Shown here piece after piece: positions 2,505-15,832 of a DNA stretch of 33,841 bases. Below the pieces are notes generated by a model. That model had not been told where the DNA came from. It saw only the letters and a list, made by a program, of their open reading frames with translations, and did not search any database. The stretch's first letter is position 1. The number at the start of each line of letters is the position of its first letter. The stretch is taken from NCBI GenBank assembly GCA_001788415.1, contig MGBV01000099.1, positions 34,430 through 68,270 on the forward strand, written 5' to 3'. A program made the position numbers and the translations under genes. The stretch is from Candidatus Rokubacteria bacterium GWC2_70_16 (lineage in GTDB: Bacteria > Methylomirabilota > Methylomirabilia > Rokubacteriales > CSP1-6).

Positions 2505-2813
2505 ATGAGGGGGGTCGGAGTTCTTGGCGTAACGCTTCTGGTTGTCCTTGCGTCGGTGGGCGTCTCGGCCCAGATGCCGATGGAACACAAAGGCACAATC
2601 TCGAAGATCGACACGAAGGCGAAGACCTTCGCCGTCAAGGACGAGAAGGGCAAGGAGGTGACGATGCACGCGGAGGATGTCAAGGCTTTGGCGGGCCTTC
2701 GGGTGGGTGACAAGGTCGTCGTGAAGATGACCGCGAAGGACGGGAAGAACATGGCCAAGGAGGTGCTGAAGGAAGCTACCGGACGGGCTCCCGCGCCTGG
2801 GTATGGAAAATGA
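2505..2813 (+). CDS. Small secreted Lys-rich beta-barrel (OB-fold-like) protein, possibly ExtJ-like partner of the cytochrome
   Basis: Signal peptide ending VSA; GTISKID...LRVGDKVVV pattern; GAGGGGGGAG RBS; ATG at 2505. Confidence 0.65.
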   Translation: MRGVGVLGVTLLVVLASVGVSAQMPMEHKGTISKIDTKAKTFAVKDEKGKEVTMHAEDVKALAGLRVGDKVVVKMTAKDGKNMAKEVLKEATGRAPAPGYGK

Positions 2814-2841
2814 CACGCTCCGCATTGCGAAGGAGGAAGTC

Positions 2842-4146
2842 ATGACGCCGCAATCCTCCGGCAAGACCGCCTGGGCCAGTGTCTCCTGGATCGGCGGACT
2901 CACCGTCTTGATGCTCGCTCTTCTCTCCCTTCCCGACGTCGCACTGGCTCAACAGAAAGCAAGAACGGTGGACGATCTCGCGAAGATGTACGACGTCGCC
3001 TCATGCAAGCAGTGCCACGCCAAGGTCTACGAGGAGTGGGAGAAGTCAACGCACGCGCGCTCCCTCATCGGAACCGGCCGGACCATCGGGGGATTCCAAG
3101 GAATGATCAGGGCCGGCCTCATGGGGGCATTCACGAAATCGGGGGTGAAGGATGTAGGGGACGTCAAAGTCGAGCACCTCGCGCAGTGTTTCAAGTGCCA
3201 TCTTCCGCAGATTTCGGATGCCACCGATGAGGTCGCGCGGGAACTCGTCAAGGCATACCTGGATGCTGATCGGGCCACGCTCGGCAAGGTCAACGTCAAC
3301 TGTCTCGTGTGCCACAACACGAAGGCGATTCTGCACAAGTGGCAGGATGGGGAGCCCGAGAAGGGCGTCGTCTACGGCTCCAAGGACGGTCCGCATCCCG
3401 ACAAGTACCCGGCGATGAAAAACAGCGTGGTCATGAAAGAGGCGGCGATGTGTGGCCAGTGCCACGGCACGGGGCCGAACTTCGAATTCCCGCAGCCTTC
3501 GCAGTGCGCGACCGCGTACGGGAGCTATCTCCACGCCTATATTCCCGCGGGCGGCACAGAGACGTGTCAGGACTGCCATATGAAGAAGGACGGCAAGGGG
3601 CACCTCATGCCCGCCTACCGCGACCCGGATATGGCGAAGAGGGCCGTGGATGTCGACGTGGAGGCGAGGGGATACAAGTTCCTGCTCAAGGCAGGGGACT
3701 CAATCCCGACAGCCGTGGTGACGGTGAAAATCACGAATAAGGCAGGGCATCGAATCCCTGATGGCTGACCCTCGCCCCAGAGAGCGGTCCTGGACGTGAC
3801 CGCGAAGACAAGCGATGGCAAAGAGATCTTCAGGGATTCAAAGATCTATATGCCGCAAGCCACCAATAGTCGTGGTGATGCGATGGTCTACGGGGCGCAC
3901 TTCAAGATGGGATATACCCGCGACACGAGCCTTCAGCCGCTTCAGACCAGGGTGGAGACCTACGAAATCAAGTTCCCGTATGAAGACGTCGAGAAGGAAA
4001 AGGGCAAACCCAGGGTGAGAGAGATACGGGCCAGGGAGATGGACGTGACGGTTGAGCTGCGGTACCAGCCTGATCCTGCGCCAGGTGAAGCGGGAAAGGA
4101 CAGTTTCGTTCTGCATAAGACGACGAAGAAAGTCAGCATCAAATAG
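2842..4146 (+). CDS. extKL: Periplasmic pentaheme cytochrome c selenoprotein (ExtKL-type), Sec at TGA 3766-3768 (residue 309 of 434)
   Basis: AGGAGG RBS then ATG 2842; signal peptide; five CxxCH (CKQCH, CFKCH, CLVCH, CGQCH, CQDCH); track ORFs 2803..3768 and 3796..4146 share a frame and are separated only by TGA in GHRIPDG*PSP; hairpin downstream. Confidence 0.85.
3784..3803 (+). promoter_or_regulatory. Putative bacterial SECIS element
   Basis: GCGGTC (3784-3789) pairs with GACCGC (3798-3803) around CTGGACGT, starting 15 nt after the in-frame TGA; C3790-G3796 pairing leaves apical loop UGGAC with G at position 2. Confidence 0.7.
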
Positions 4147-4164: not shown

Positions 4165-4587
4165 ATGGAAGATCTGTCGGGGCACGGTGAGCTCCAGGTG
4201 GAGCCCCGCGGGGCTCCACCGAAGAAGGTTTTGGTGCTGATGCGCAAGGCCCCTTATGGAACCCTCTACAACTGGGAGGGCCTGCAGGTGCTCCTCATCA
4301 TGGGGGCCTACAAGATGCAGGGTCTGGTGGACATCGCCGTGGCCTTCGTGGAGGACGGGGTCTTCGCGATCACCCAGGGGCAGGACCCGAGCAGCCTGGG
4401 GATGAAGGCGATCGCGAAGACCTACCCGGCGCTCCCGGACTTCGAGGTGGACCGCTTCTACGTCGACGGGCAGTCACTGGCCGATCGGAGCCTGACCCTG
4501 GATGACCTGGTGATCCAGCCCGAGATCCTCGACGCGGCGGGGATGGCCCGGCTCTTGGAGGAGCAGGACGCGGTCCTGCCGTTCTAG
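4165..4587 (+). CDS. dsrF: Sulfurtransferase complex subunit DsrF/TusC
   Basis: KKVLVLMRKAPYG...EGL, FVEDGVF, SLADRSL, ends DAVLPF; short N-terminal extension. Confidence 0.9.
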   Translation: MEDLSGHGELQVEPRGAPPKKVLVLMRKAPYGTLYNWEGLQVLLIMGAYKMQGLVDIAVAFVEDGVFAITQGQDPSSLGMKAIAKTYPALPDFEVDRFYVDGQSLADRSLTLDDLVIQPEILDAAGMARLLEEQDAVLPF

Positions 4588-4600
4588 AGGAGGCCGAGTG

Positions 4601-4894
4601 ATGCTCTTCACGGTGAACAAGTCGCCTTACCTGCACGGCAACCTGGAAGGCTGCCTGCGGCTGGCCCCGGCCGGGACGCCGCTCGTGCTCTACGAGGACG
4701 GGGTGTACGCGGCGGCGGCGGGCACGCGCGTGGAAGAGCTGATGCGCCAGGCCCTGGCCCGGCACCCCGTCTATGTGCTGGAAGCCGACCTCAGGGCCCG
4801 CGGGCTCGGGCGCCTGATCGAGGGCGTGCGGGTGATCGACTACGCGGGCTTCGTGGAGCTGGTGGAGCAGCATCCCGTGGTGCCCTGGCTGTGA
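4601..4894 (+). CDS. dsrH: Sulfurtransferase complex subunit DsrH/TusB
   Basis: MLFTVNKSP, LEGCLR, LYEDGVYAA, DLRARGL, IDYAGFVELV, ends WL; start is GTG 4598 or ATG 4601. Confidence 0.92.
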   Translation: MLFTVNKSPYLHGNLEGCLRLAPAGTPLVLYEDGVYAAAAGTRVEELMRQALARHPVYVLEADLRARGLGRLIEGVRVIDYAGFVELVEQHPVVPWL

Positions 4895-4930
4895 CAGGGA
4901 CCGGGCGGGCGGCGTAAGAGGAGAACGAGC

Positions 4931-6340
4931 ATGCTGGTGGTGCAGCTGGCGTGTCCCAAGTGCGGCTTCGTCATCGAGCAGTACCCGGCCGAGCAGCTCG
5001 AGACGGACTCCCAGAAGCAGAAGCGCTACCAGTACCTCCGGAAGAAGCAGACGCTCTGCCCGAGCTGCCTCACCCAGACCTCCAAGCTCGAGGAGCGCCG
5101 GGTGGAGGCCCAGGCCGGGGCCGAGGCGAGCGTGCTCGCGGCGGCCCAGGCGCCCGCCGAGGCCGGCGCCCCCGAGGCGGACGAGGGGCCGACGCCATTC
5201 TGCGACGAGCTCGGGCGGGGGCCCTGGCCGAGCCACGTGAGGGAGCTCAGGCGAACCCGCTACCACATGCAGATGTACGAGGAGGCCCTGAGGCTCCGCC
5301 AGACCCAGTGGGGCTTCGGCGGCTACGTCTCGCTGCCGGGGGTGGCCGCCGGGCTTGCGGTGCGCGCCTCGGCCCGCCCCGAGATCGCCAAGGGGGCCAA
5401 CTTCCTCCGGATCCTCCCTCCCGGCGGCAGCTTCTACTCCACCGAGACCCTCGGCAAGGTCTGCGACATCGCCGACCGCTACGCCTATGGCCTCCTGCAT
5501 CTGCACAGCACCGGCGGGAACATCGAGATCCTGGGGATCCCCACCGAGCAGCTCAAGGAGGTGGTCTCCGCCCTGAACGCCCAGGGGCTGGACGTGGGGT
5601 CCACCGGCGATGCCTACCGCAACACCGTGGAATGCGTCGGCCCGGCGCGCTGCGATGCGACCCTGATCGACACGCTCGGGATCCGCGACGCATGGTACCG
5701 GCGCTTCCTGGACGACGTGCAGTTCCCGCGCTTCCCCCACAAGCTCAAGATCAAGATCTCCGGCTGCCCTAACGACTGCACCCGCTCCGTCCAGAAGTCG
5801 TGCATCGCGCTCATCGGCGTCTTCCGCGACGCCCCGAAGATCGACCACGAGCGGCTGGCCGCCTGGGTCGAGGGGGGAGGCGACGCGGCCCACATCGCGC
5901 GGATGTGCCCGCCCCGGGCCCTTGACTGGGACGGGCGGCGGCTTGCGATCGACCAGGAGGCCTGCACCCACTGCATGTACTGCATCAACAAGTGCCCGGC
6001 CATCCGGCCGGGGGACGACCGCGGGGTGGCCGTGCTGGTGGGCGGGAAGCTCCGCGGCAAGTACGGCCCGCTCCTGGGACGGGTGCTGGTCCCCTTCGTT
6101 CCCTTGGCGCCGCCCGAGTACCGCGAGCTGTTCGACCTCCTCCACAGGATCGACGAGGTCTTCGACGAGCACGCCCGCCGGAAGGAGCGCCTGGGCGATT
6201 TCCTCTTCCGGATCGGGATGGACCAGTTCTCCCGGCTCGTGGGGATCGAGCCCTCGGCCCATCAGATGGCCGAGCCCCGGAGCAATGTCTTCTATCACTG
6301 GGCCGCCGGCCCGCCCGGCAGCGACGCGGCGGAGGTGTAG
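4931..6340 (+). CDS. dsrA: Dissimilatory sulfite reductase alpha subunit, copy 1 (divergent/basal type, N-terminal Cys4 extension)
   Basis: TPxCDELxxGPWPS, CVGPARC (CX5C) and GCPNDC (CX3C), FPHKLKIK, ferredoxin domain CTHCMYC, ERLGD, EPRSNVFY. Confidence 0.9.
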   Translation: MLVVQLACPKCGFVIEQYPAEQLETDSQKQKRYQYLRKKQTLCPSCLTQTSKLEERRVEAQAGAEASVLAAAQAPAEAGAPEADEGPTPFCDELGRGPWPSHVRELRRTRYHMQMYEEALRLRQTQWGFGGYVSLPGVAAGLAVRASARPEIAKGANFLRILPPGGSFYSTETLGKVCDIADRYAYGLLHLHSTGGNIEILGIPTEQLKEVVSALNAQGLDVGSTGDAYRNTVECVGPARCDATLIDTLGIRDAWYRRFLDDVQFPRFPHKLKIKISGCPNDCTRSVQKSCIALIGVFRDAPKIDHERLAAWVEGGGDAAHIARMCPPRALDWDGRRLAIDQEACTHCMYCINKCPAIRPGDDRGVAVLVGGKLRGKYGPLLGRVLVPFVPLAPPEYRELFDLLHRIDEVFDEHARRKERLGDFLFRIGMDQFSRLVGIEPSAHQMAEPRSNVFYHWAAGPPGSDAAEV

Positions 6341-6342
6341 CC

Positions 6343-7395
6343 ATGCCCGGAATCGGCGTCGCGCCAATGGAAGCGAATCTCCCTCCCATCGTGAGGCGCA
6401 ATTACGGCGCGTGGGTGTGGCACGAGGTGATCCGGCCCGGCGTCCTGAAGCACGTGTCGAAGAGCGGGGAGGCCTGCTTCACCGTGCGAGCGGGGATGCC
6501 CCCCAACGCCCGGGTGTCGACCGCGCTCGCCCGCCGGATCTGCGAGGTGGCCAACCGGTTCTGCGGCGGCTACCTCCGCATCACCCGGCGCCACAGCCTG
6601 GAGCTGGTGGGGGTGGCCGAGGCCGAGCTCGGCGCGGCGATCGCGGCGCTCCGCGAGATCGGGCTGGCGGTGGGGGGGGCCGATCGCACCTTCCACAACA
6701 TCGTCTGCTGCACGGGCTGGATCCATTGCCAGTTCGCCGCCACCGATGCGCCCGCCATCGCCAAGGCGATCTCGGACGGGCTCTGGGAGGATTTCCAGTC
6801 GGAGGGGTACCCGGCCAAGCTGAAGATCTCCATCGCCGCCTGTGTCAACCAGTGCGGCGAGGGCTCCACTGCCGACATCGGGGTGATCGGCATCCATCGC
6901 GACCTGCCGCGGGTCAACGACGCGGAGGTGGCGAAGTGCGAGGTGCCGCTGATCGTCTCCATCTGCCCCACCGGCGCCATCCGTCCGAAGCCCCCCAAGA
7001 GCGTGCAGGTGGACCCCAGGCGCTGCATCCACTGCGTGGCCTGCGTGGGGCAATGCGTCGGCATGCCCATCGGGGACCCCGAGACCGACGGCGTGGCGAT
7101 CTACGTCGGCGGCAAGGCCGGCAACCAGGGGAGCGGCCCCGCCTTCGGCAAGCTGGCGATCCCGTATCTGCCCAACCGCCCGCCGCGCTGGCCGGAGGTC
7201 GTCCAGGCCGTGACGGGCATCATCGGGGTGTGGACGAAGGGGGCCCGGAGGGACGAGCGCATCGGCGACTGGATCAGCCGGATCGGCTGGGAGCGCTTCT
7301 TCGACAAGACAGGGCTGCCGGTGAGCGACAAGCACCTGGACGGCTATGTCCTCTGGCCCATGGCGGCGCGCACCGGGGTGCGGTTCCGCTGGTAG
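6343..7395 (+). CDS. dsrB: Dissimilatory sulfite reductase beta subunit, copy 1
   Basis: LPPIVRRNYGAW..HE...PGVLKHV, GWIHC, CVNQCG, CIHCVAC, PPRWPE, RIGWERFF; ATG 6343 after GGAGG. Confidence 0.92.
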   Translation: MPGIGVAPMEANLPPIVRRNYGAWVWHEVIRPGVLKHVSKSGEACFTVRAGMPPNARVSTALARRICEVANRFCGGYLRITRRHSLELVGVAEAELGAAIAALREIGLAVGGADRTFHNIVCCTGWIHCQFAATDAPAIAKAISDGLWEDFQSEGYPAKLKISIAACVNQCGEGSTADIGVIGIHRDLPRVNDAEVAKCEVPLIVSICPTGAIRPKPPKSVQVDPRRCIHCVACVGQCVGMPIGDPETDGVAIYVGGKAGNQGSGPAFGKLAIPYLPNRPPRWPEVVQAVTGIIGVWTKGARRDERIGDWISRIGWERFFDKTGLPVSDKHLDGYVLWPMAARTGVRFRW

Positions 7396-7443
7396 GCCAA
7401 CCCCGCGCATGACGGGAGGGGACACGGTGAGGAGAGAGCGACG

Positions 7444-8856
7444 ATGCTGATGGTGCAGCTGGCCTGTCCCAGGTGCGGCTTCGTCATCGAGCAGTACGGG
7501 GCCGCCCAGCTGGAGGCGGACACCCAGAAGCAGAAGCGCTACCAGTACCTCAGGAAGAAGCAGACCCTCTGCCCGAGCTGCCTCAGCCAAACCGCCAAGC
7601 TCGAGGAGCGCCGGGTGGAGGTGGAGGCTGGGCCCCAGGCCGAGCTCATGGCCGAGGCCGAGGCGCCGCCCGAGGCGGTACCTGCGGGCGAGGCCGTCGC
7701 GCCGACGCCGCTATGCGACGAGCTGGAGCGCGGGCCCTGGCCCAGCCACGTGACCGAGCTCAAGCAGACGCGGTACCACATGCAGATGTACGAGGAGGGC
7801 CTCCGCCAGAAGCGAACCCAGTGGGGGTTCGGCGGTTACACCTCGATTCCCGGTGTGGCCTCCGGGATCCTCATGCGGGCCTCGGCCCGGCCCGACATCG
7901 CCAAGGGCGCCAACCTGGTCCGCGCCTTCTGTCCCAGCGGGACGTTCTACTCCACGCAGACCTTCCGGGCCCTCTGCGACGTGGCGGACCGCCACGGCTA
8001 CGGCATCCTGCACCTCCATGCCACGACCTGCGACATCGAGGTCCTGGGGGTGCCCAAGGAGGAGCTCCGGGCGACGGTGGACGAGCTGGTGGCGGCCGGC
8101 CTGGACGTGGGCTCCACCGGGGATGCCTACCGCAACTGCCAGGAGTGCATCGGCCCCTTGCGCTGCGAGATGGTCCTGGTGGACTCGGTGGCCATGCGCC
8201 AGGCCTACTTCACGCGCTTCCTGGACGACGTCCAGTACCCGCGCTTCCCCCACAAGATCAAGTTCAAGCTCTCGGGGTGCCCCAACGACTGCACGCGCTC
8301 GCAGCAGAAGGGGGACATCGCCATCGTCGGGGTGTTCCGGGATCCGCCGACGATCGACGCGGCCCGGCTCGAGGGCTGGGTCGCTGGGGGCGGGGACATC
8401 GCCCACATCGTCAGGATGTGCCCGACGCGAGCCATGGAGTGGGACGGCCGGCGGCTGGCCATCGACGCCGACGGCTGCGTCCGCTGCATGTACTGCATCA
8501 ACAAGTGCCCGGCCGTCCGCCCGGGGGGCGATCGCGGCGTGGCCGTCCTGGCCGGCGGCAAGATGCGGGGCAAGTATGGGCCCCTCCAGCCCTTCGTCAT
8601 CGCGCCATTCGTCCCCGCCGTCCCGCCGGACTTCACGGAGGTCTTCGACCTCTGCGCCAAGATCACCGATGTCTACGACGAGCACGCGCGCCGCAAGGAG
8701 CGGCTGGGGGACTTCATCTACCGCACGGGGATCGACCAGTTCTGCCGCCTGGTCGGCGTGCCGTCGGCCCCTCAGCAGATGGTCTCTCCCCGCATCAATC
8801 CCTTCTACCACTGGACGCCCGAAGAGCTGCAGGCCTCCCGGAAGGAGGCCGACTGA
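7444..8856 (+). CDS. dsrA: Dissimilatory sulfite reductase alpha subunit, copy 2
   Basis: Collinear paralog of 4931..6340; CIGPLRC and GCPNDC, FPHKIKFK, CVRCMYC. Confidence 0.9.
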   Translation: MLMVQLACPRCGFVIEQYGAAQLEADTQKQKRYQYLRKKQTLCPSCLSQTAKLEERRVEVEAGPQAELMAEAEAPPEAVPAGEAVAPTPLCDELERGPWPSHVTELKQTRYHMQMYEEGLRQKRTQWGFGGYTSIPGVASGILMRASARPDIAKGANLVRAFCPSGTFYSTQTFRALCDVADRHGYGILHLHATTCDIEVLGVPKEELRATVDELVAAGLDVGSTGDAYRNCQECIGPLRCEMVLVDSVAMRQAYFTRFLDDVQYPRFPHKIKFKLSGCPNDCTRSQQKGDIAIVGVFRDPPTIDAARLEGWVAGGGDIAHIVRMCPTRAMEWDGRRLAIDADGCVRCMYCINKCPAVRPGGDRGVAVLAGGKMRGKYGPLQPFVIAPFVPAVPPDFTEVFDLCAKITDVYDEHARRKERLGDFIYRTGIDQFCRLVGVPSAPQQMVSPRINPFYHWTPEELQASRKEAD

Positions 8857-9908
8857 TGCCGGGCGTCGGCCTCCCCCCGCTCGAACGGAACCTGCCGCCC
8901 ATCGTCCTCCGCAACTACGGCAAGTGGCTGGACCACGAAGAGCCGAGACCGGGCGTCCTCAAGCATGTGGCCGAGAGCGGCGAGGCATGCTACACCGTGC
9001 GCGCCGGGATGCCGACGAATGCGCGGGTCTCCACCACGCTCGCCCGCAAGATCGCGGACCTCGCGGACGACTTCGCCGGCGGGCACCTGCGCCTGACCCG
9101 GCGCCACAGCCTGGAGCTGGTCGGAGTGGACCCGGCCCGGATCGACGAGCTGATCGAGCGGCTCCGGGGTCTCGGGCTGCCCGTGGGCGGCACCGGCCGG
9201 ACATTCCGCAACACGGTGTCCTGCACCGGCTGGATCCACTGCCAGTTCGCTGCCACCGATGCCCCGGCGGTGGCCAAGGCCATCTCCGACGAGCTGTACG
9301 AGGACTTCCTCACCGAGCGCTACCCGGCCAAGCTCAAGATCTCCATCTCCGGCTGCGTGAACCAGTGCGGCGAGGGGTCCACCGCCGACATCGGGATCGT
9401 CGGCATCCACCGGGACCTGCCCCGGGTCATCGACGAGGAGGTGGCCCGCTGCGAGATCCCGCTGATCGTCTCGGTCTGCCCCACCGGCGCCATCAGGCCC
9501 AAGCCGCCGAAGAGCGTCCAGGTGGATCCCGAGCGCTGCATCCACTGCGTGGCCTGCGCCGCGCCGTGCCAGGGGATGCAGATCGGCGACCCCGACACCG
9601 ACGGCGTCGCGGTCGTGGTTGGCGGCAAGGCGGGCAACTCGGGGAACGGCCCGGCCTTCGCCAAGTTCGTGATCCCCTACCTCCCGAACAGCCCGCCGCG
9701 CTGGCCCGAGGTCACGCGGGCGGTGAGGCAGATCGTGGAGGTGTGGGTGAAGGGAGCCCGGCGGGACGAGCGGATCGGCGACTGGATCGCGCGGATCGGC
9801 TGGGACAAGTTCTTCGAGAAGGCCGGGCTGCCGATGAGCGACAAGCTCCTCGACGGCTACGTCCTCTGGCCCATGTCGGCCCGTACCGGGGTGCGGTTCC
9901 ACTGGTAG
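8856..9908 (+). CDS. dsrB: Dissimilatory sulfite reductase beta subunit, copy 2
   Basis: TGATG overlap with dsrA2; NYGKW, CTGWIHC, GCVNQCG, PPRWPE, RIGWDKFF. Confidence 0.92.
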   Translation: MPGVGLPPLERNLPPIVLRNYGKWLDHEEPRPGVLKHVAESGEACYTVRAGMPTNARVSTTLARKIADLADDFAGGHLRLTRRHSLELVGVDPARIDELIERLRGLGLPVGGTGRTFRNTVSCTGWIHCQFAATDAPAVAKAISDELYEDFLTERYPAKLKISISGCVNQCGEGSTADIGIVGIHRDLPRVIDEEVARCEIPLIVSVCPTGAIRPKPPKSVQVDPERCIHCVACAAPCQGMQIGDPDTDGVAVVVGGKAGNSGNGPAFAKFVIPYLPNSPPRWPEVTRAVRQIVEVWVKGARRDERIGDWIARIGWDKFFEKAGLPMSDKLLDGYVLWPMSARTGVRFHW

Positions 9909-9941: not shown

Positions 9942-10259
9942 ATGGCGACGGTAGAGCTCGAAGGCAAGACGATGGAGCTGGACGAGGATGGGTTCCTGCA
10001 GAATCCGGATCTCTGGTCCGAGACGGTGGCCCAGTACTTCGCCGACCAGGAGGGGCTGGGGCAGCTCACGGACGAGCACTGGAAGGTGGTGAAGATGATC
10101 CGCGGCTACTACCTGCAGTTCGGCGTCGCCCCCATGATCCGCAAGGTCGTCAAGGACACCGGCTTCGACCTCAAGTACATCTACCAGCTCTTCCCCTCGG
10201 GGCCGGCCAAGGGGGCCTGCAAGGTCGCCGGGCTCCCCAAGCCCACGGGCTGCGTGTAG
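9942..10259 (+). CDS. dsrC: Sulfur carrier DsrC with both C-terminal cysteines
   Basis: DEDGFL, LTDEHW, LFPSGPAKGACKVAGLPKPTGCV (CX10C). Confidence 0.97.
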   Translation: MATVELEGKTMELDEDGFLQNPDLWSETVAQYFADQEGLGQLTDEHWKVVKMIRGYYLQFGVAPMIRKVVKDTGFDLKYIYQLFPSGPAKGACKVAGLPKPTGCV

Positions 10260-10275
10260 GCGGGCGGAGGCTCGG

Positions 10276-10851
10276 GTGACGCTGCCCGCGGGCGCCCGCG
10301 CGGCGGGCGGGCCAGGTCTCGAGGCGCTGGCGGCACGGCGGAGCGCCATTGCCGGCCGGTGGCTGGCGCTGACGCTCGAGGGCTACCCGGCCCCCACCGC
10401 GCGCCTGCTGGCGCGCGAGACGGACCCCTTCCGCAACCCCGTCGGGCACACCCTCAGGCAGGCGCTGTCTGGCCTCGCGGAGGAGCTTGTCGGGGCCATG
10501 GACCCCGCCAGGGTCGCCGCCCTCCTGGACAGCGTCGTGAGGATCCGCGCCGTCCAGGACGTGAGCGCGAAGGAGGCGGTGAGCTTCGTGTTCCTGGCCA
10601 GGCAGGCCCTTCGCGAAGAGATCGACAGCGGCGGGGGACTGCCGGCCGGAGACGGGCTGGCGGCCGTGGAGGCGCGGGTCGACGAGATGGCGCTCTCGGC
10701 CTTCGACCTGTTCATGCGCTGCCGCGAGCAGATCCACGCGATCCGGGCCGACGAGGCCCGACGCCGGACGGCTCTCCTGGACCGCATCCGCGAGCGGGCC
10801 GGCCGGCCCGGGAGCGAGCCCGCCGGGGCGGACCCGGGAACTGCGCCGTGA
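10276..10851 (+). CDS. dsrT: DsrT (RsbRD N-terminal-domain protein)
   Basis: W...YP, DPFRNPVG, VRIRAVQD, AVSFVF, AFDLFMRCRE; directly upstream of dsrM. Confidence 0.88.
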   Translation: MTLPAGARAAGGPGLEALAARRSAIAGRWLALTLEGYPAPTARLLARETDPFRNPVGHTLRQALSGLAEELVGAMDPARVAALLDSVVRIRAVQDVSAKEAVSFVFLARQALREEIDSGGGLPAGDGLAAVEARVDEMALSAFDLFMRCREQIHAIRADEARRRTALLDRIRERAGRPGSEPAGADPGTAP

Positions 10852-11840
10852 GCGCGCTGGCCCCCCTGGCCCTCGTCCTGCTCCTGGCCGGGCTGGCCCT
10901 GGCCGGCGGGCAGTTCTCCGGGCTCCGCCCCGTGCTCGGCGTGCTCCTCCCCTACGCGGCCTTCGTCACCTTCCTCCTCGGGGTGTGCCATCGCATCCTC
11001 GTGTGGGTGCGAGCGCCTGTCCCCTTCCGCATCCCCACCACCTGCGGCCAGCAGCGCTCCCTGCCCTGGATCAGGCAGAGCCGCATCGAGAACCCGTCCT
11101 CGACAGCTGGCGTCGTGGCGCGCATGGCGCTGGAGGTGTGTCTGTTCCGGTCGCTGCTCCGCGGCAGCCGGGCCGAGCTGCGGGAAGGGCCCCGGCTGGT
11201 GTACGCCGACGACCGGCTCCTGTGGCTGGCGGCGCTGGCCTTCCACTGGTCGCTTCTCGTCGTCGTCCTGAGACACCTGCGCTTCGTCCTGGAGCCAGTG
11301 CCCGCGGCGATCCGCACGCTGGCCGCGGTGGACGGGTTCTTCCAGCTGGGCGCCCCGGGGCTCTACGCCACGGATGTCGTCCTCGTGGCCGCGCTGGGCT
11401 ATCTCCTCTGGCGGAGGCTCGCAAACCCGCAGCTCCGGTACCTGTCGCTGTCCGCCGACTACTTCGCGCTCTACCTGCTGCTGGGGCTGGCCGCCTCCGG
11501 CCTGCTCATGCGGCATGTGGTCCGGACGGACGTCGTGGCGGTGAAGCAGCTCGCCCTCGGCCTCGTGACCCTGTCCCCCATTGTCCCCGAGGGCGTGGGC
11601 TCCCTGGCGCTCCTGCACCTCGTCCTCCTGAGCACGCTCGCCGCCTACTTCCCCTTCAGCAAGCTCATGCACATGGGCGGCATCTTCCTGAGCCCGACGC
11701 GGAACCTGGCCAATACGAGCCGGGCGCATCGCCACGTCAACCCCTGGAACGCGCCCGTCGCCACCCACAGCTACGAGGAGTGGGAGGACGAGTTCCGGGA
11801 CAAGATCAGGGCGGCCGGCCTGCCGCTCGAGAAGGGATAG
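10848..11840 (+). CDS. dsrM: DsrM, NarI-like membrane cytochrome b
   Basis: PVPFRIPTTCGQQ, FHWSL..LRHLR, YFPFSKLMHMGGIFLSPTRN, YEEWEDEFR; GTGA overlap with dsrT. Confidence 0.93.
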   Translation: MSALAPLALVLLLAGLALAGGQFSGLRPVLGVLLPYAAFVTFLLGVCHRILVWVRAPVPFRIPTTCGQQRSLPWIRQSRIENPSSTAGVVARMALEVCLFRSLLRGSRAELREGPRLVYADDRLLWLAALAFHWSLLVVVLRHLRFVLEPVPAAIRTLAAVDGFFQLGAPGLYATDVVLVAALGYLLWRRLANPQLRYLSLSADYFALYLLLGLAASGLLMRHVVRTDVVAVKQLALGLVTLSPIVPEGVGSLALLHLVLLSTLAAYFPFSKLMHMGGIFLSPTRNLANTSRAHRHVNPWNAPVATHSYEEWEDEFRDKIRAAGLPLEKG

Positions 11841-11842
11841 CC

Positions 11843-13462
11843 ATGGCGGAAGAGGCCCCGGCCCCCGCGCAGCTCGCGCAGGTCGACTACCGGCCGCCGG
11901 CGCGGGACTGGCGGGAGGCCGCCGTCGACTTCCGCAAGGGGACCTACTGCTACAGCGCCGCGCCCAAGAACCTCCAGTACCTGGGGCTGCCCAATCCGCG
12001 ACCGTGGCAGCCCCACGACGCGGACTGGAAGCTCCCCCCCGACTGGAAGCAGACCATCCTCGCGGGCATGAAGGACAGGCTCGAGCGCTTCCGGTCCTTC
12101 CGCCTGTTCATGGACATCTGCGTGCGCTGCGGGGCCTGCGCCGACAAGTGCCACTTCTACCTCGGCACCGGCGACCCCAAGAACATGCCGGTGTTGAGGG
12201 CCGAGCTGATGCGCTCGGTGTACCGGCGCTACTTCACCCTGCCCGGCCGGCTGCTGGGCGGGCTCGCGGGCGGGCGGGAGCTCACCGAGGACGTGCTCAA
12301 GGAGTGGTTCTACTACTACCACCAGTGCACGGAGTGCCGCCGCTGCTCGGTCTTCTGCCCCTTCGGGATCGACACGGCGGAAGTGACCATGATGGGGCGC
12401 GAGCTGCTGACCCTGGTGGGCTGCAACATCAACTGGATCCTCGAGCCGGCGGCGAATTGCTACCGGACGGGCAACCACCTCGGGATCCAGCCCCATGCCT
12501 TCAAGGACAGCGTCGACTTCGCCGTGGACGAGCTGGAGGAGATGACCGGCATCCGCGTGGAGGCTCCCATCAACAAGAAGGGCGCCGAGATCCTGTACGT
12601 GATCCCGTCGGCGGAGACCTTCGGGACGCCCCACTACTACACGCTCCTGGGCACGCTGCTCCTCTTCCACGCCATCGGTCTGGACTACACGCTCAGCGCG
12701 TATGCCTCCGAGGGCGGCAACTTCGGCCTCTTCACCTCCCACGAGGTGATGAAGCGGCTGAACGCCAAGATCTACGCCGAGGCCCGGCGGCTGGGGGTCA
12801 AGTGGATCCTCGGCGGCGAGTGCGGCCACATGTGGCGCGTCGTGCACCAGTACATGGACACCATGAACGGCCCGGCGGACTTCCTGGAGGAGCCCGTCTC
12901 GCCGGTGACGGGCACGCGGTTCGAGCAGGCGCGGTCCACGAAGATGGTGCACATCTGCGAGTTCACGGCCGATCTCATCCGCGAGGGCAAGCTCCGGCTC
13001 GACCCCCGGCGGAACGACCACTGGGTCGCGACCTTCCACGACTCCTGCAACCCGGCCCGGGCCATGGGGCTCCTCGAGGAGCCGCGCTACATCCTCCGGA
13101 GCGTGTGCCAGCGCTTCCACGAGATGCCCGAGAGCACCATCCGGGAGCGGACCTTCTGCTGCGGCAGCGGGTCGGGTCTCGGCACGGACGAGAATTTCGA
13201 GATGCGCATGCGGGGCGGCTTCCCCCGGGCCAATGCCGTGAGGCATGTGCAAGACCGGTTCGGCGTGAACCTGGTGGCGTGCATCTGCGCCATCGACAAG
13301 GCCACGCTCCCGCCGCTCCTGGAGTACTGGGTGCCGGGGATGAACGTGGCCGGCGTGCACGAGCTCGTGGGCAATGCCCTCGTGGTCGACGGCGAGAAGG
13401 CGCGGACCCAGGACCTGCGCGGCCAGCCCCTGGTCTCGCCGGAGGCACCCGCCGGTGCGTGA
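11843..13462 (+). CDS. dsrK: DsrK, HdrD-like Fe-S protein
   Basis: CVRCGACADKCH, CTECRRCSVFCP, GECGH, FHDSCN, FCCGSG; ATG at 11843. Confidence 0.95.
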   Translation: MAEEAPAPAQLAQVDYRPPARDWREAAVDFRKGTYCYSAAPKNLQYLGLPNPRPWQPHDADWKLPPDWKQTILAGMKDRLERFRSFRLFMDICVRCGACADKCHFYLGTGDPKNMPVLRAELMRSVYRRYFTLPGRLLGGLAGGRELTEDVLKEWFYYYHQCTECRRCSVFCPFGIDTAEVTMMGRELLTLVGCNINWILEPAANCYRTGNHLGIQPHAFKDSVDFAVDELEEMTGIRVEAPINKKGAEILYVIPSAETFGTPHYYTLLGTLLLFHAIGLDYTLSAYASEGGNFGLFTSHEVMKRLNAKIYAEARRLGVKWILGGECGHMWRVVHQYMDTMNGPADFLEEPVSPVTGTRFEQARSTKMVHICEFTADLIREGKLRLDPRRNDHWVATFHDSCNPARAMGLLEEPRYILRSVCQRFHEMPESTIRERTFCCGSGSGLGTDENFEMRMRGGFPRANAVRHVQDRFGVNLVACICAIDKATLPPLLEYWVPGMNVAGVHELVGNALVVDGEKARTQDLRGQPLVSPEAPAGA

Positions 13463-13850
13463 CCGGGGTTTGCTGGTCGGCGGCCTGGCCCTCTTCGTGG
13501 CCGTGATCACCTTCCCGGTCTGGTACAACGTCGCCGCCGGGACGCCCACGCGGGGCCCCGAGCCCGTGCGCCCCGCCGGGACCGGGCGCTGCGTTGGGCC
13601 CACGGAGTACATGCGCGCTTCCCACATGAGCCTGCTCATGGCGTGGCGCGACGACGTGGTGCGAGGGCAGGACCGCAACTTCGTGGGCCCCGACGGGAAG
13701 ACCTACGCCAAGAGCCTCACGCGCACCTGTCTCGGCTGTCACACCAGCAAGGCGGAGTTCTGCGACCGCTGCCACGACTACGGCGCCGTGAAGCTCACCT
13801 GCTGGGAGTGCCACATCGACCCCGCCTCACTCCGGAAGGCTCAGCGATGA
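13455..13850 (+). CDS. dsrJ: DsrJ triheme cytochrome c
   Basis: N-terminal TM helix, CV...YMRASHM..L..WRDDVVR, CLGCH, CDRCH, CWECH; GGAGG then GTG 13455. Confidence 0.92.
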   Translation: MRDRGLLVGGLALFVAVITFPVWYNVAAGTPTRGPEPVRPAGTGRCVGPTEYMRASHMSLLMAWRDDVVRGQDRNFVGPDGKTYAKSLTRTCLGCHTSKAEFCDRCHDYGAVKLTCWECHIDPASLRKAQR

Positions 13851-14614
13851 GCATGGATCGCCGGGCTTTCCTGGGCGCGGCCGGGCTCTCCGCGCTGGCC
13901 ATGACCGGGACCCAGTCCCTCGAGGCCCTGGCCGGCGCCGGCCGCCCGGAGACAACGCCCGAGGGGCGCCGCGCCCCGCGCTGGGGCATGGTCATCGATC
14001 TGCGGAAATGCCTCGAGGACCGGGGCTGCACCGATTGCATCGCCGCCTGCGAACGCGCGCACAACGTGCCGCGGCTCGAGTCGCGGGCCCACGAGGTGAA
14101 GTGGATCTGGCGGGAGCCCTACGAGCGGGCCTTCGCCCAGCGCGGGAGCGGGTACGGGGACGAGGCCCTCAGGGGCAAGCGCGTCCCCGTGCTCTGCAAC
14201 CACTGCGACAATCCCCCGTGCGTGCGCGTGTGCCCCGTCAAGGCCACGTGGAAGCGGGGAGACGGCATCGTCATGATGGACTGGCACCGCTGCATCGGCT
14301 GCCGCTACTGCATGGCGGCCTGTCCCTACGGGGCGCGGAGCTTCAACTGGCTCGACCCGCGCCCCCGGGTCAAGGAGGTGAACCCGGATTTCCCCACGCG
14401 GACCAGAGGGGTCGTCGAGAAATGCAACTTCTGCGAGGAGCGGCTCGCCCAGGGGCGCGGGCCGGCCTGCGTGGAGGCGTGCCGGGAGCGGGCCCTGACT
14501 TTCGGGGACCTGCGGGACCCCGGCTCGGAGGTGCGCGGGCTCTTGCGGAGCCGTCACGCCATGAGGCGGAAGCCCGAGCTCGGCACCGAGCCGAGCGTCT
14601 ACTACCTGGCATGA
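13847..14614 (+). CDS. dsrO: DsrO periplasmic Fe-S protein
   Basis: Tat signal DRRAFLG, RWGMVIDL, CNHCDNPPCVRVCP, CIGCRYCMAACP, KCNFC. Confidence 0.93.
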   Translation: MSMDRRAFLGAAGLSALAMTGTQSLEALAGAGRPETTPEGRRAPRWGMVIDLRKCLEDRGCTDCIAACERAHNVPRLESRAHEVKWIWREPYERAFAQRGSGYGDEALRGKRVPVLCNHCDNPPCVRVCPVKATWKRGDGIVMMDWHRCIGCRYCMAACPYGARSFNWLDPRPRVKEVNPDFPTRTRGVVEKCNFCEERLAQGRGPACVEACRERALTFGDLRDPGSEVRGLLRSRHAMRRKPELGTEPSVYYLA

Positions 14615-14632
14615 GGAGGCAGGGAGGCGGCC

Positions 14633-15832
14633 GTGCTTGACAAGGGGCTCAGTGGGGGCGGGCGGTACTGGGCCTGGCTCGGCGCCCTGGCCGCGCTGAT
14701 CGTCGCGGGCGCGCTGGCCTACCAGCGGCAGCTCACGCTGGGGCTGGGGATCACGGGGCTGAGCCGGGATGTGACCTGGGGTCTCTACATCGCCCAGTTC
14801 ACCTTCCTGGTCGGGGTCGCGGCCTCGGCCGTCGTGGTGGTCCTGCCCTATTACCTGCACGACTACCGCGTCTTCGGCAAGATCACGATCCTCGGCGAAT
14901 GCCTCGCCGTCTCCGCCGTGGCCATGTGCCTGCTCTTCGTCTTCGTGGACATGGGCCAGCCCGCGCGCGCGCTGAACGTGCTCCTGTACCCGACGCCCAA
15001 CTCCATCATGTTCTGGGACATGCTCGTGCTCGCCGGCTACCTGGCGCTCAACGCCGTCATCGCCCGGGCCACGCTCTCGGCCGAGCACCGGGGCGTGCCG
15101 CCGCCCCGGTGGCTCCGGCCCGTCATCGTGCTCTCCATTCCCTGGGCCGTCAGCATCCACACGGTCACGGCGTTCCTGTACAGCGGGCTCCCCGGACGGC
15201 ACCTGTGGCTGACCGCGCTCCTGGCGCCGCGCTTCCTCGCCTCGGCCTTCGCCTCGGGGCCCGCCCTGCTGATCCTCCTGGCCATGCTCCTCCGCCGACT
15301 CACGGGCTTCGACGTCGGCCGGGAGGCCCTCCAGAAGCTCGGGCTGATCGTCGCCTACACGATGACCGTCAACGTGTTCTTCGTGCTGGTGGAGCTCTTC
15401 ACGGTCTTCTACAGCCAGGCGCCCGAGGCGATGCACCACTTCGAGTTCCTGTTCCTCGGACTCGAGGGCCAGGCGGGGCTGGTCCCGTGGATGTGGGCCT
15501 CGGTGGTCCTGGCCATGATGTCGCTGGGCCTGCTCCTCACGCCGCGCTGCCGCCAGGACATGCGGCTCCTGGCCGCCGCCTGCGCCATGGTGTTCGCCTC
15601 GCTGTGGATGGACAAGGGCCTCGGCCTCATCGTCGGCGGCTTCGTGCCCTCGCCCCTGGGAGAGGTGACGGGCTACGCCCCGACGCTGCCGGAGGTCGCC
15701 ATCGCGCTCGCCATCTGGGCCGTGGGCTCGCTGCTGGCCACCGTGCTCTTCAAGGTCGTCGCCGCCGTGAGGGGGGAGCCGAGTGGCCCCGACCCCCACT
15801 CCCGCTGGGCCCGGGCCCCCGTCGAGCCATGA
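14633..15832 (+). CDS. dsrP: DsrP, NrfD/PsrC-family membrane protein
   Basis: TGLSRDVTWGLYIAQFTFLVGVAA, SIPWAVSIHTVTAFL, RFLASAF; polytopic hydrophobic protein. Confidence 0.93.
   Translation: MLDKGLSGGGRYWAWLGALAALIVAGALAYQRQLTLGLGITGLSRDVTWGLYIAQFTFLVGVAASAVVVVLPYYLHDYRVFGKITILGECLAVSAVAMCLLFVFVDMGQPARALNVLLYPTPNSIMFWDMLVLAGYLALNAVIARATLSAEHRGVPPPRWLRPVIVLSIPWAVSIHTVTAFLYSGLPGRHLWLTALLAPRFLASAFASGPALLILLAMLLRRLTGFDVGREALQKLGLIVAYTMTVNVFFVLVELFTVFYSQAPEAMHHFEFLFLGLEGQAGLVPWMWASVVLAMMSLGLLLTPRCRQDMRLLAAACAMVFASLWMDKGLGLIVGGFVPSPLGEVTGYAPTLPEVAIALAIWAVGSLLATVLFKVVAAVRGEPSGPDPHSRWARAPVEP

Follow-up and report, generated by a model that had tools for sequence, protein, structure and literature searches.

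In a 33,841-nucleotide (nt) stretch of DNA from Candidatus Rokubacteria bacterium GWC2_70_16 (contig MGBV01000099.1, positions 34,430 to 68,270 of the forward strand; hereafter the window), which holds the dsr operon of a genome that is 87% complete, both copies of DsrA begin with a translated module of 59 amino acids (aa) that carries four cysteines in two CxxC motifs and is joined by an acidic linker to the catalytic core. DsrAB is the key enzyme and a marker gene of dissimilatory sulfur metabolism, and in this lineage the known enzyme appears to be equipped with an undescribed, lineage-specific accessory module whose predicted fold resembles a zinc ribbon. The reading favoured here, with a probability of roughly one half, is that the module serves as an accessory subunit, in cis or in trans, of deep-branching DsrAB that lack DsrD, and that it would have a stabilising or modulating effect on the enzyme.

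Both DsrA proteins open with the pattern M-L-x-VQLAC-P-[KR]-C-G-F-V-I-E-Q-Y...QKQKRYQYLRKKQTL-C-P-S-C, in which the cysteines stand at residues 8, 11, 43 and 46 and 31 residues separate the two CxxC motifs (CPxC-x31-CPxC); the corresponding codons of dsrA1 lie at 4952-4954, 4961-4963, 5057-5059 and 5066-5068. The module is followed in both copies by a linker rich in Ala, Glu and Pro and without Lys or Arg, and then by the motif TPxCDELxRGPWPS. An earlier note on this DNA, made from the sequence without database searches, had described such a domain of about 59 residues and an Ala/Glu/Pro linker ahead of the usual DsrA start, and this arrangement is confirmed for both copies. In each, residue 92 is the first to align to the NCBIfam dsrA model TIGR02064 (profile position 2), and therefore about 90 residues precede the canonical start. 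By comparison, in 8/8 canonical DsrA read from another family of this phylum the N-terminus lacks a Cys motif and 14-19 residues come ahead of GPWPS, a ninth locus (L023) having been missed by the motif search. Because the four Cys are the sole invariant columns across 19-21 aligned sequences, in which identity falls to 28-33%, the module is, on the strength of this alignment, a real feature and not a product of chance.

From residue 88 onwards the module-bearing proteins resemble canonical DsrA, with NIR_SIR_ferr and NIR_SIR domains that score above the Pfam cut-offs (41.4 and 95.3 bits in DsrA1, 34.6 and 107.9 bits in DsrA2) and with the Cys motifs kept (C235, C241, C279 and C283 are invariant in alignment A7). 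They differ from it in having about 87 extra N-terminal residues, in an identity of only 36-38% to canonical DsrA from that other family, and in the scores of their cores against TIGR02064 (326.1 bits for DsrA1 and 333.3 bits for DsrA2), which stay below the equivalog cut-off of 392.85. Scores of this size are in line with a lineage that branches deeply and lies apart from the canonical types (PMC6018805).

The module is translated and under purifying selection. In all six genes compared, namely the two in the window and four orthologs from four genomes of three genera, the same ATG is kept with a GGAG-type Shine-Dalgarno (SD) sequence 7-10 nt upstream, and the sequence further upstream is unrelated. 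Variable sites over the 177 nt of the module are distributed 7/5/23 over codon positions 1/2/3, and the ratio of nonsynonymous to synonymous divergence (dN/dS) among orthologs is 0.09-0.22 at a dS of 0.25-0.43, with 0.05-0.13 for the core in the same comparisons. The synonymous excess in the module is significant in the three ortholog pairs tested (Fisher p about 1e-5), and homologs at 28-59% identity, among them stand-alone proteins with their own stop, retain the reading frame and all four Cys. A translation start further downstream, against which the earlier note had cautioned, is contradicted by the conserved SD and ATG and by the codon pattern.

The fold of the 61-residue module was predicted with AlphaFold2 (AF2) from a 21-row alignment, with a predicted local distance difference test (pLDDT) score of 93.7 and a predicted template modelling (pTM) score of 0.75. 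In this model, strands 2-7 and 14-19 flank the first CxxC knuckle, a helix at residues 20-38 bears the conserved basic residues (an RK-KR pattern; the isoelectric point (pI) of the module is 8.4-9.4 in 17/19 members), the second knuckle lies between short strands at 41-42 and 49-50, and a final strand spans residues 54-59, the knuckles being predicted to lie on beta-hairpins in a small sheet, as in zinc ribbons. No Pfam or NCBIfam model was matched at its cut-off by any of the 19 members; the sub-threshold matches are nearly all to zinc-ribbon families, with the TFIIB Zn ribbon in 9/19 members, and the best sequence match in the PDB is the knuckle of a TFIIB ribbon (E 0.0035). A clear solved relative was not found (the best Foldseek E was 0.4, with none at E<=0.001, and the best VIA Z was 4.4, with none at Z>=5), and ribosomal zinc-ribbon proteins are among the top weak rows of these searches.

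These predictions suggest an independently folding, zinc-ribbon-like Cys4 fold with a basic helix, in which the metal is assumed to be Zn. The module is like the zinc ribbons (TFIIB-type PF08271, Zn_ribbon_3) in having two CxxC knuckles on beta-hairpins and four invariant Cys, and unlike them in that a 19-residue basic helix between the knuckles gives the 31-residue spacing and no family cut-off is reached. The earlier note had proposed an unrecognised Zn-ribbon or rubredoxin-like metal site with a basic helix. The lack of a family at cut-off, the translation of the four-Cys module and the basic helix bear out part of this, and the ribbon itself is favoured by the predicted fold and the sub-threshold matches, but without a solved relative or a family score at cut-off; the rubredoxin-like fold and the electron transfer that would go with it drew no positive support from the profile or fold searches.

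In the host genome the module was found nowhere besides the two DsrA proteins. Among 251 species genomes of the phylum, it is present in 5/5 with this type of DsrA, in 0/9 with canonical DsrA and in 0/237 others, and single-sequence and family-profile searches return the same five genomes; these all belong to one family, and the nine with canonical DsrA belong to another. A scan of a genome collection with Rokubacteria-specific patterns gave three loci, all from Rokubacteria. When 1.84 billion representative proteins were searched with the family profile, 18 matches were obtained at E<=1e-3; 17 of these look real, P0025 being discounted as a low-complexity repeat protein. One group of matches comprises DsrA-fused forms or fragments (the Rokubacteria group, P0012 and the 470-aa P0021), another consists of proteins that stand alone, 54-76 aa in length, with a common stop in several subfamilies, and a third is formed by P0011, P0013 and P0026, proteins of 111-128 aa in which the module is joined to a tail resembling PCP_red. 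PCP_red is a domain of protochlorophyllide reductase subunit B, and the three tails score 23.2, 17.9 and 18.3 bits against its model (PF08369), short of the gathering cut-off of 32.5, which points weakly to a resemblance and to nothing closer. The tail is C-terminal and about 45 residues long, with a conserved W...A...L...V..FA...GY..IT motif. These fusions show that the module can combine with other domains.

A second search, over 5.8 billion proteins, gave 24 clusters of 29-109 aa, one of which (P0028) continues into the DsrA start motif, and the source labels among them include one Verrucomicrobiae and one Symbiobacteriaceae. The family therefore appears to be rare, to extend beyond Rokubacteria and to be tied mostly to this deep-branching DsrA lineage. 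Short matches that were at first taken as stand-alone proteins were rejected as truncated DsrA N-termini; by eye, the tails of P0010 and P0016 resemble frame-shifted DsrA and that of P0020 a DsrA C-terminus. Look-alikes of P0017 in the ESM Atlas were unnamed clusters at 0.93 and gave nothing informative. The DsrA of P0021, which is 55% identical, does not have two of the ferredoxin-domain Cys that are kept in Rokubacteria (KCP is changed to KVD, and MCP to GCR).

The earlier note had posed the question of whether the module stands alone or occurs only on basal DsrA; both forms exist, and one stand-alone gene lies directly 3' of dsrB. The contig in question (L034) is 1332 bp long and carries a dsrB whose product shares 50% identity with DsrB2; 50 nt past the stop of this dsrB follows the gene of P0022, a stand-alone protein of 56 aa that has a stop of its own. 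In classical dsrABD operons, the place just 3' of dsrB is that of dsrD. DsrD (PF08679) was not found in the host genome (87% complete; no match at E<=1), in keeping with the suggestion that the module sits on basal DsrA where DsrD is missing, and the accessible parts of the literature agree, describing Rokubacteria as without dsrD (PMC6018805; PMC8794893) and the DsrAB of Rokubacteria, Verrucomicrobia and Hydrothermarchaeota as deep branches without it (PMC6018805; PMC8794893; PMC7596348).

According to PMC8794893, DsrD is a small, Lys-rich allosteric activator of DsrAB with a winged-helix fold and no cysteines, and in Bilophila its gene forms a fusion with dsrB. The module is like DsrD in its small size (55-78 aa), its basic character and its lack of cofactor-type chemistry, in its genetic tie to dsrAB, whether as a gene just 3' of dsrB or as part of a DsrAB subunit (the latter as in the Bilophila dsrB-dsrD fusion of the same text), and in its niche, being present where DsrD is missing. 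It is unlike DsrD in having a Cys4 ribbon as against a winged helix without Cys, and in being fused at the N-terminus of DsrA, as opposed to the C-terminus of DsrB. PF08679 is not among the Pfam matches of the module, which gives no sequence relation between the two; and while DsrD activates DsrAB, a counterpart role of the module is a proposal by analogy.

Docking of the module on the enzyme was modelled in one complex, made up of the DsrA1 core (residues 88-469), DsrB1 and the module as partner with a riding Zn. The interface score (ipSAE) of this complex is 0.74 (0.67, 0.75 and 0.74 in separate runs), and the best of three controls reached 0.00; the mark used for this score is reached by 116/157 solved complexes as against 2/215 mismatched pairs. 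The runs have at least 84% of their contacts in common, and the pLDDT of the partner is at least 80. Because the module has no solved relative, the result is not a recall of a known complex. The model thus supports binding on DsrAB, and with it the docking role that the earlier note had suggested. The predicted interface involves module residues 14-17, 28, 31-32, 34-35, 39-45, 47 and 49-52, which contact DsrA at 129-146, 205, 208, 227, 261, 265-267 and 417, and DsrB at 199-200, 203 and 236-239, in the ferredoxin domain beside conserved Cys.

In the mechanism proposed here, the module would be supplied either in cis, as the N-terminal part of DsrA, or in trans, as a protein of about 55 aa, and in the fused form the flexible acidic linker of about 28 residues would keep it attached to the catalytic core. 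On DsrA the module would pack against the beta-hairpin (129-146) with its second strand and second Cys knuckle, and on DsrB its basic helix would lie against the ferredoxin domain. There the module may stabilise or modulate the enzyme near the outer [4Fe-4S] cluster, in a role parallel to that of DsrD, the small basic activator, to which it is not homologous. Both the bound metal, assumed to be Zn, and the regulatory or stabilising effect are what we infer from these models.

Several observations weigh against an accessory subunit of DsrAB. The docking score is a model confidence, and a complex built on purpose-made shallow alignments with a riding Zn falls outside the calibration. The residues of the predicted interface are no more conserved than the others (mean column entropy 1.75 versus 1.67; Mann-Whitney p 0.58), and K29 and E55, the best-conserved polar residues besides the Cys, lie outside it. 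The AF2 model of full-length DsrA1, from an 8-row alignment, has a pLDDT of 42.4 and is too poor to show docking in cis. On the genomic side, P0022 is the sole stand-alone member with context, and its contig ends 26 nt after the gene; the three fusions to a PCP_red-like domain indicate that the module is not exclusive to DsrAB.

Two other functions have to be weighed against the favoured one. If the Cys4 site bound iron, in a rubredoxin- or Kti11-like manner, the module could relay electrons to or from the [4Fe-4S] cluster in the ferredoxin domain of DsrB, as a built-in adaptor for an electron donor or acceptor in lineages without DsrL. The arrangement CPxCG...CPxC with 31 residues between the motifs recalls rubredoxin (PF00301), in which the CxxC motifs are about 30 residues apart, the predicted dock touches DsrB 199-203 and 236-239, beside the cluster Cys C199, C234 and C238, and RUBY_RBDX gives sub-threshold matches in 4/19 members; moreover, DsrL was not uncovered in Rokubacteria according to the accessible part of PMC7596348. 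However, PF00301 is not among the matches at E<=0.1 for the module of the window or for 13 homologs (the best 25 of 65 families listed), rubredoxin is not among the Foldseek or VIA matches listed, and in the AF2 model a 19-residue helix lies between the knuckles, unlike in rubredoxin. Such a redox module is considered distinctly doubtful. The more ambitious version of the favoured reading, in which a new Cys4 accessory subunit of the earliest-branching bacterial DsrAB sits on the ferredoxin domain of DsrB, gates or carries electrons, and does the job of an activator or of the long-sought adaptor to the physiological electron donor in lineages without DsrD and DsrL, is held to be just as doubtful.

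The module might instead work away from DsrAB, as a tethered basic adaptor that recruits an acidic partner (DsrC, DsrEFH or DsrH, DsrK of the membrane complex, or a ferredoxin) or regulates by binding nucleic acid. Its basic character and the conserved RK-KR helix would suit this role, as would a long flexible linker capable of fly-casting, the position of K29 and E55, the evidence from the PCP_red-like fusions that the module can serve other proteins, and the fact that its best matches among solved sequences are zinc ribbons of the nucleic-acid machinery (TFIIB, RNA polymerase subunits and ribosomal proteins). These matches, however, span the CxxC knuckle only, at E >= 0.0035, the complex model favours DsrAB itself over controls that score 0.00, and DsrD, which is likewise basic, binds DNA only non-specifically and yet acts on DsrAB (PMC8794893, accessible text). 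An adaptor of this kind is thought unlikely, and an accessory subunit that acts on DsrAB is preferred.

A further alternative is that the module is not a protein feature at all, translation starting further on and the two copies being alike through gene conversion of an untranslated leader. The copies are indeed alike in a way that would fit such a leader, since dS between the paralogs is low in the module (0.16, as against 0.60 in the core) and identity has a sharp edge at the ATG, with 162/177 nt identical in the module and 26/60 in the 60 nt upstream. Yet the ortholog dN/dS and the codon pattern, the open frame with SD and ATG in 6/6 genes, the divergent homologs and stand-alone proteins that keep the frame and the four Cys, and the confident AF2 fold all contradict it, and as an explanation it is next to excluded by the data.

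What these figures do point to is recombination. The two copies are identical at 51/59 residues of the module, 36% of the linker (60-87) and 66% of the core (88-456), in agreement with the eight differences, the core about two-thirds identical and the variable linker that the earlier note had counted, and nucleotide identity falls off after codon 59. Paralog dS is 0.88 in the linker, where dN/dS is about 0.5, and the difference between module and core is significant (Fisher p 0.0014), with dN/dS nearly equal in the two (0.45 and 0.41). Because the dS of the module is about four times below that of the core, the high similarity of the copies is best read as largely the outcome of recombination or gene conversion of translated DNA; conversion was foreseen in the earlier note, as conversion of untranslated DNA, and the first half of this holds and the second does not. 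Stronger purifying selection on the module than on the core was considered and rejected, dN/dS being alike and only the divergence time of the segments differing.

The claim that the module is more conserved than the catalytic core is accordingly true between the paralogs only, where dS is low, and does not stand as a sign of constraint. Among orthologs its identity is 86-93%, compared with 90-99% for the core, and in P0021, a more remote DsrA fusion, it stands at 42% as against 55% overall, so that over longer distances divergence is faster in the module than in the core.

As regards the history of the locus, G223, which belongs to the same genus, has a single dsrA whose module and 25 upstream bases copy 1 shares in identical or almost identical form (with a dS of 0.05 in the module), and beyond the module the identity of copy 1 to that gene is 66%. 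Single dsrAB of the copy-2 type, located directly after dsrH, are found in G223, G221 and G200, and G172 has the tandem as in the window. Copy 1 is thus a recombinant, in which the upstream region and module match the resident locus and the remainder, linker and core, belongs to a second type that is represented by the metagenome proteins P0001, P0003, P0004 and P0006. A type-1 cassette entered or recombined within the module, which serves as repeated homology. Contigs in Logan from four DNA runs cover both copies, with no piece bridging dsrB1 and dsrA2 among those listed; the tandem dsrA1B1-dsrA2B2 is backed by the independent genome G172.

Within the text passages covered, no published link was found between DsrA and either an extended N-terminus or a zinc ribbon, although a longer DsrA might be shown uncommented in figures or supplements, and the passages from the main papers on Rokubacteria dsr genes make no mention of the module, the term 'N-terminal' being used there for other proteins. 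The DsrAB of the Rokubacteria and Verrucomicrobia type have been cited as some of the earliest forms, and the direction in which they operate, reductive or oxidative, is disputed (PMC6018805; PMC10504309; PMC7596348; accessible parts). The profile of the four-Cys module would provide a ready marker for this type of DsrA, the placement of DsrA starts by automated pipelines should shift, and the module is a candidate for how enzymes without DsrD are stabilised, regulated or supplied with electrons. The features of the operon are collected in Table 1.

Table 1. Features of the dsr operon in the window, in operon order (positions are those of the window).
Feature	Position	Strand	Remarks
Cobyrinic-acid-diamide-synthase-like (DsrN-type) gene			First in the stated operon order
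ExtKL multihaem cytochrome gene	2803-4146	+	After the DsrN-type gene
DsrE/F-family (TusC-like) gene	4165-4587	+	Upstream context of dsrA1
dsrH	4598-4894	+	Upstream context of dsrA1
Shine-Dalgarno GAGGAG	4918..4923	+	7 nt 5' of the dsrA1 ATG
dsrA1	4931-6340	+	469 aa
DsrA1 N-terminal four-Cys module, aa 1-59	4931..5107	+	Cys 8, 11, 43, 46
DsrA1 acidic Ala/Glu/Pro linker, aa 60-87	5108..5191	+	0 Lys/Arg, 68% A+E+P
DsrA1 catalytic core, aa 88-469	5192..6340	+	Begins TPFCDELGRGPWPS; NIR_SIR_ferr 155-217, NIR_SIR 226-440
dsrB1	6343..7395	+	350 aa; TIGR02066 366.7 bits, above cut-off
Shine-Dalgarno AGGAG	7430..7434	+	5' of the dsrA2 ATG
dsrA2	7444-8856	+	470 aa
DsrA2 N-terminal four-Cys module, aa 1-59	7444..7620	+	
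DsrA2 acidic Ala/Glu/Pro linker, aa 60-87	7621..7704	+	
DsrA2 catalytic core	7705..8856	+	Ortholog of the single dsrA in related genomes; 90-98% identical to the DsrA of G223, G221, G200 and G172
dsrB2	8856..9908	+	350 aa; start codon shares 1 nt with the dsrA2 stop
dsrC, RsbRD_N (DsrT-like) gene, dsrMKJOP	9942..15832	+	Downstream context

Upstream of the two dsrAB pairs, the gene for the ExtKL-type multihaem cytochrome is broken by a single in-frame TGA at 3766-3768 (...HRIPDG*PSPQ...). Because both halves of the gene match the NCBIfam model '(seleno)protein ExtKL', with 395.7 and 85.3 bits, this TGA is likely a selenocysteine codon. A hairpin 3' of it lies weakly above shuffled sequences (z -1.7), and the window has no match to any Rfam family. 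Only two sulfur-relay genes are located 5' of dsrA (4165-4894, + strand), namely dsrH and the DsrE/F-family gene, which scores 93.9 bits against the TusC/DsrF model, just short of the cut-off of 94.15; dsrEFH has been described for Rokubacteria in the literature, and a third gene of this set is not adjacent to these two in the window. Between dsrA1 and dsrB1 there is a gap of 2 nt, and in the second pair the stop of dsrA2 and the start of dsrB2 share one base (TGATG, 8854-8858), an overlap that suggests translational coupling.

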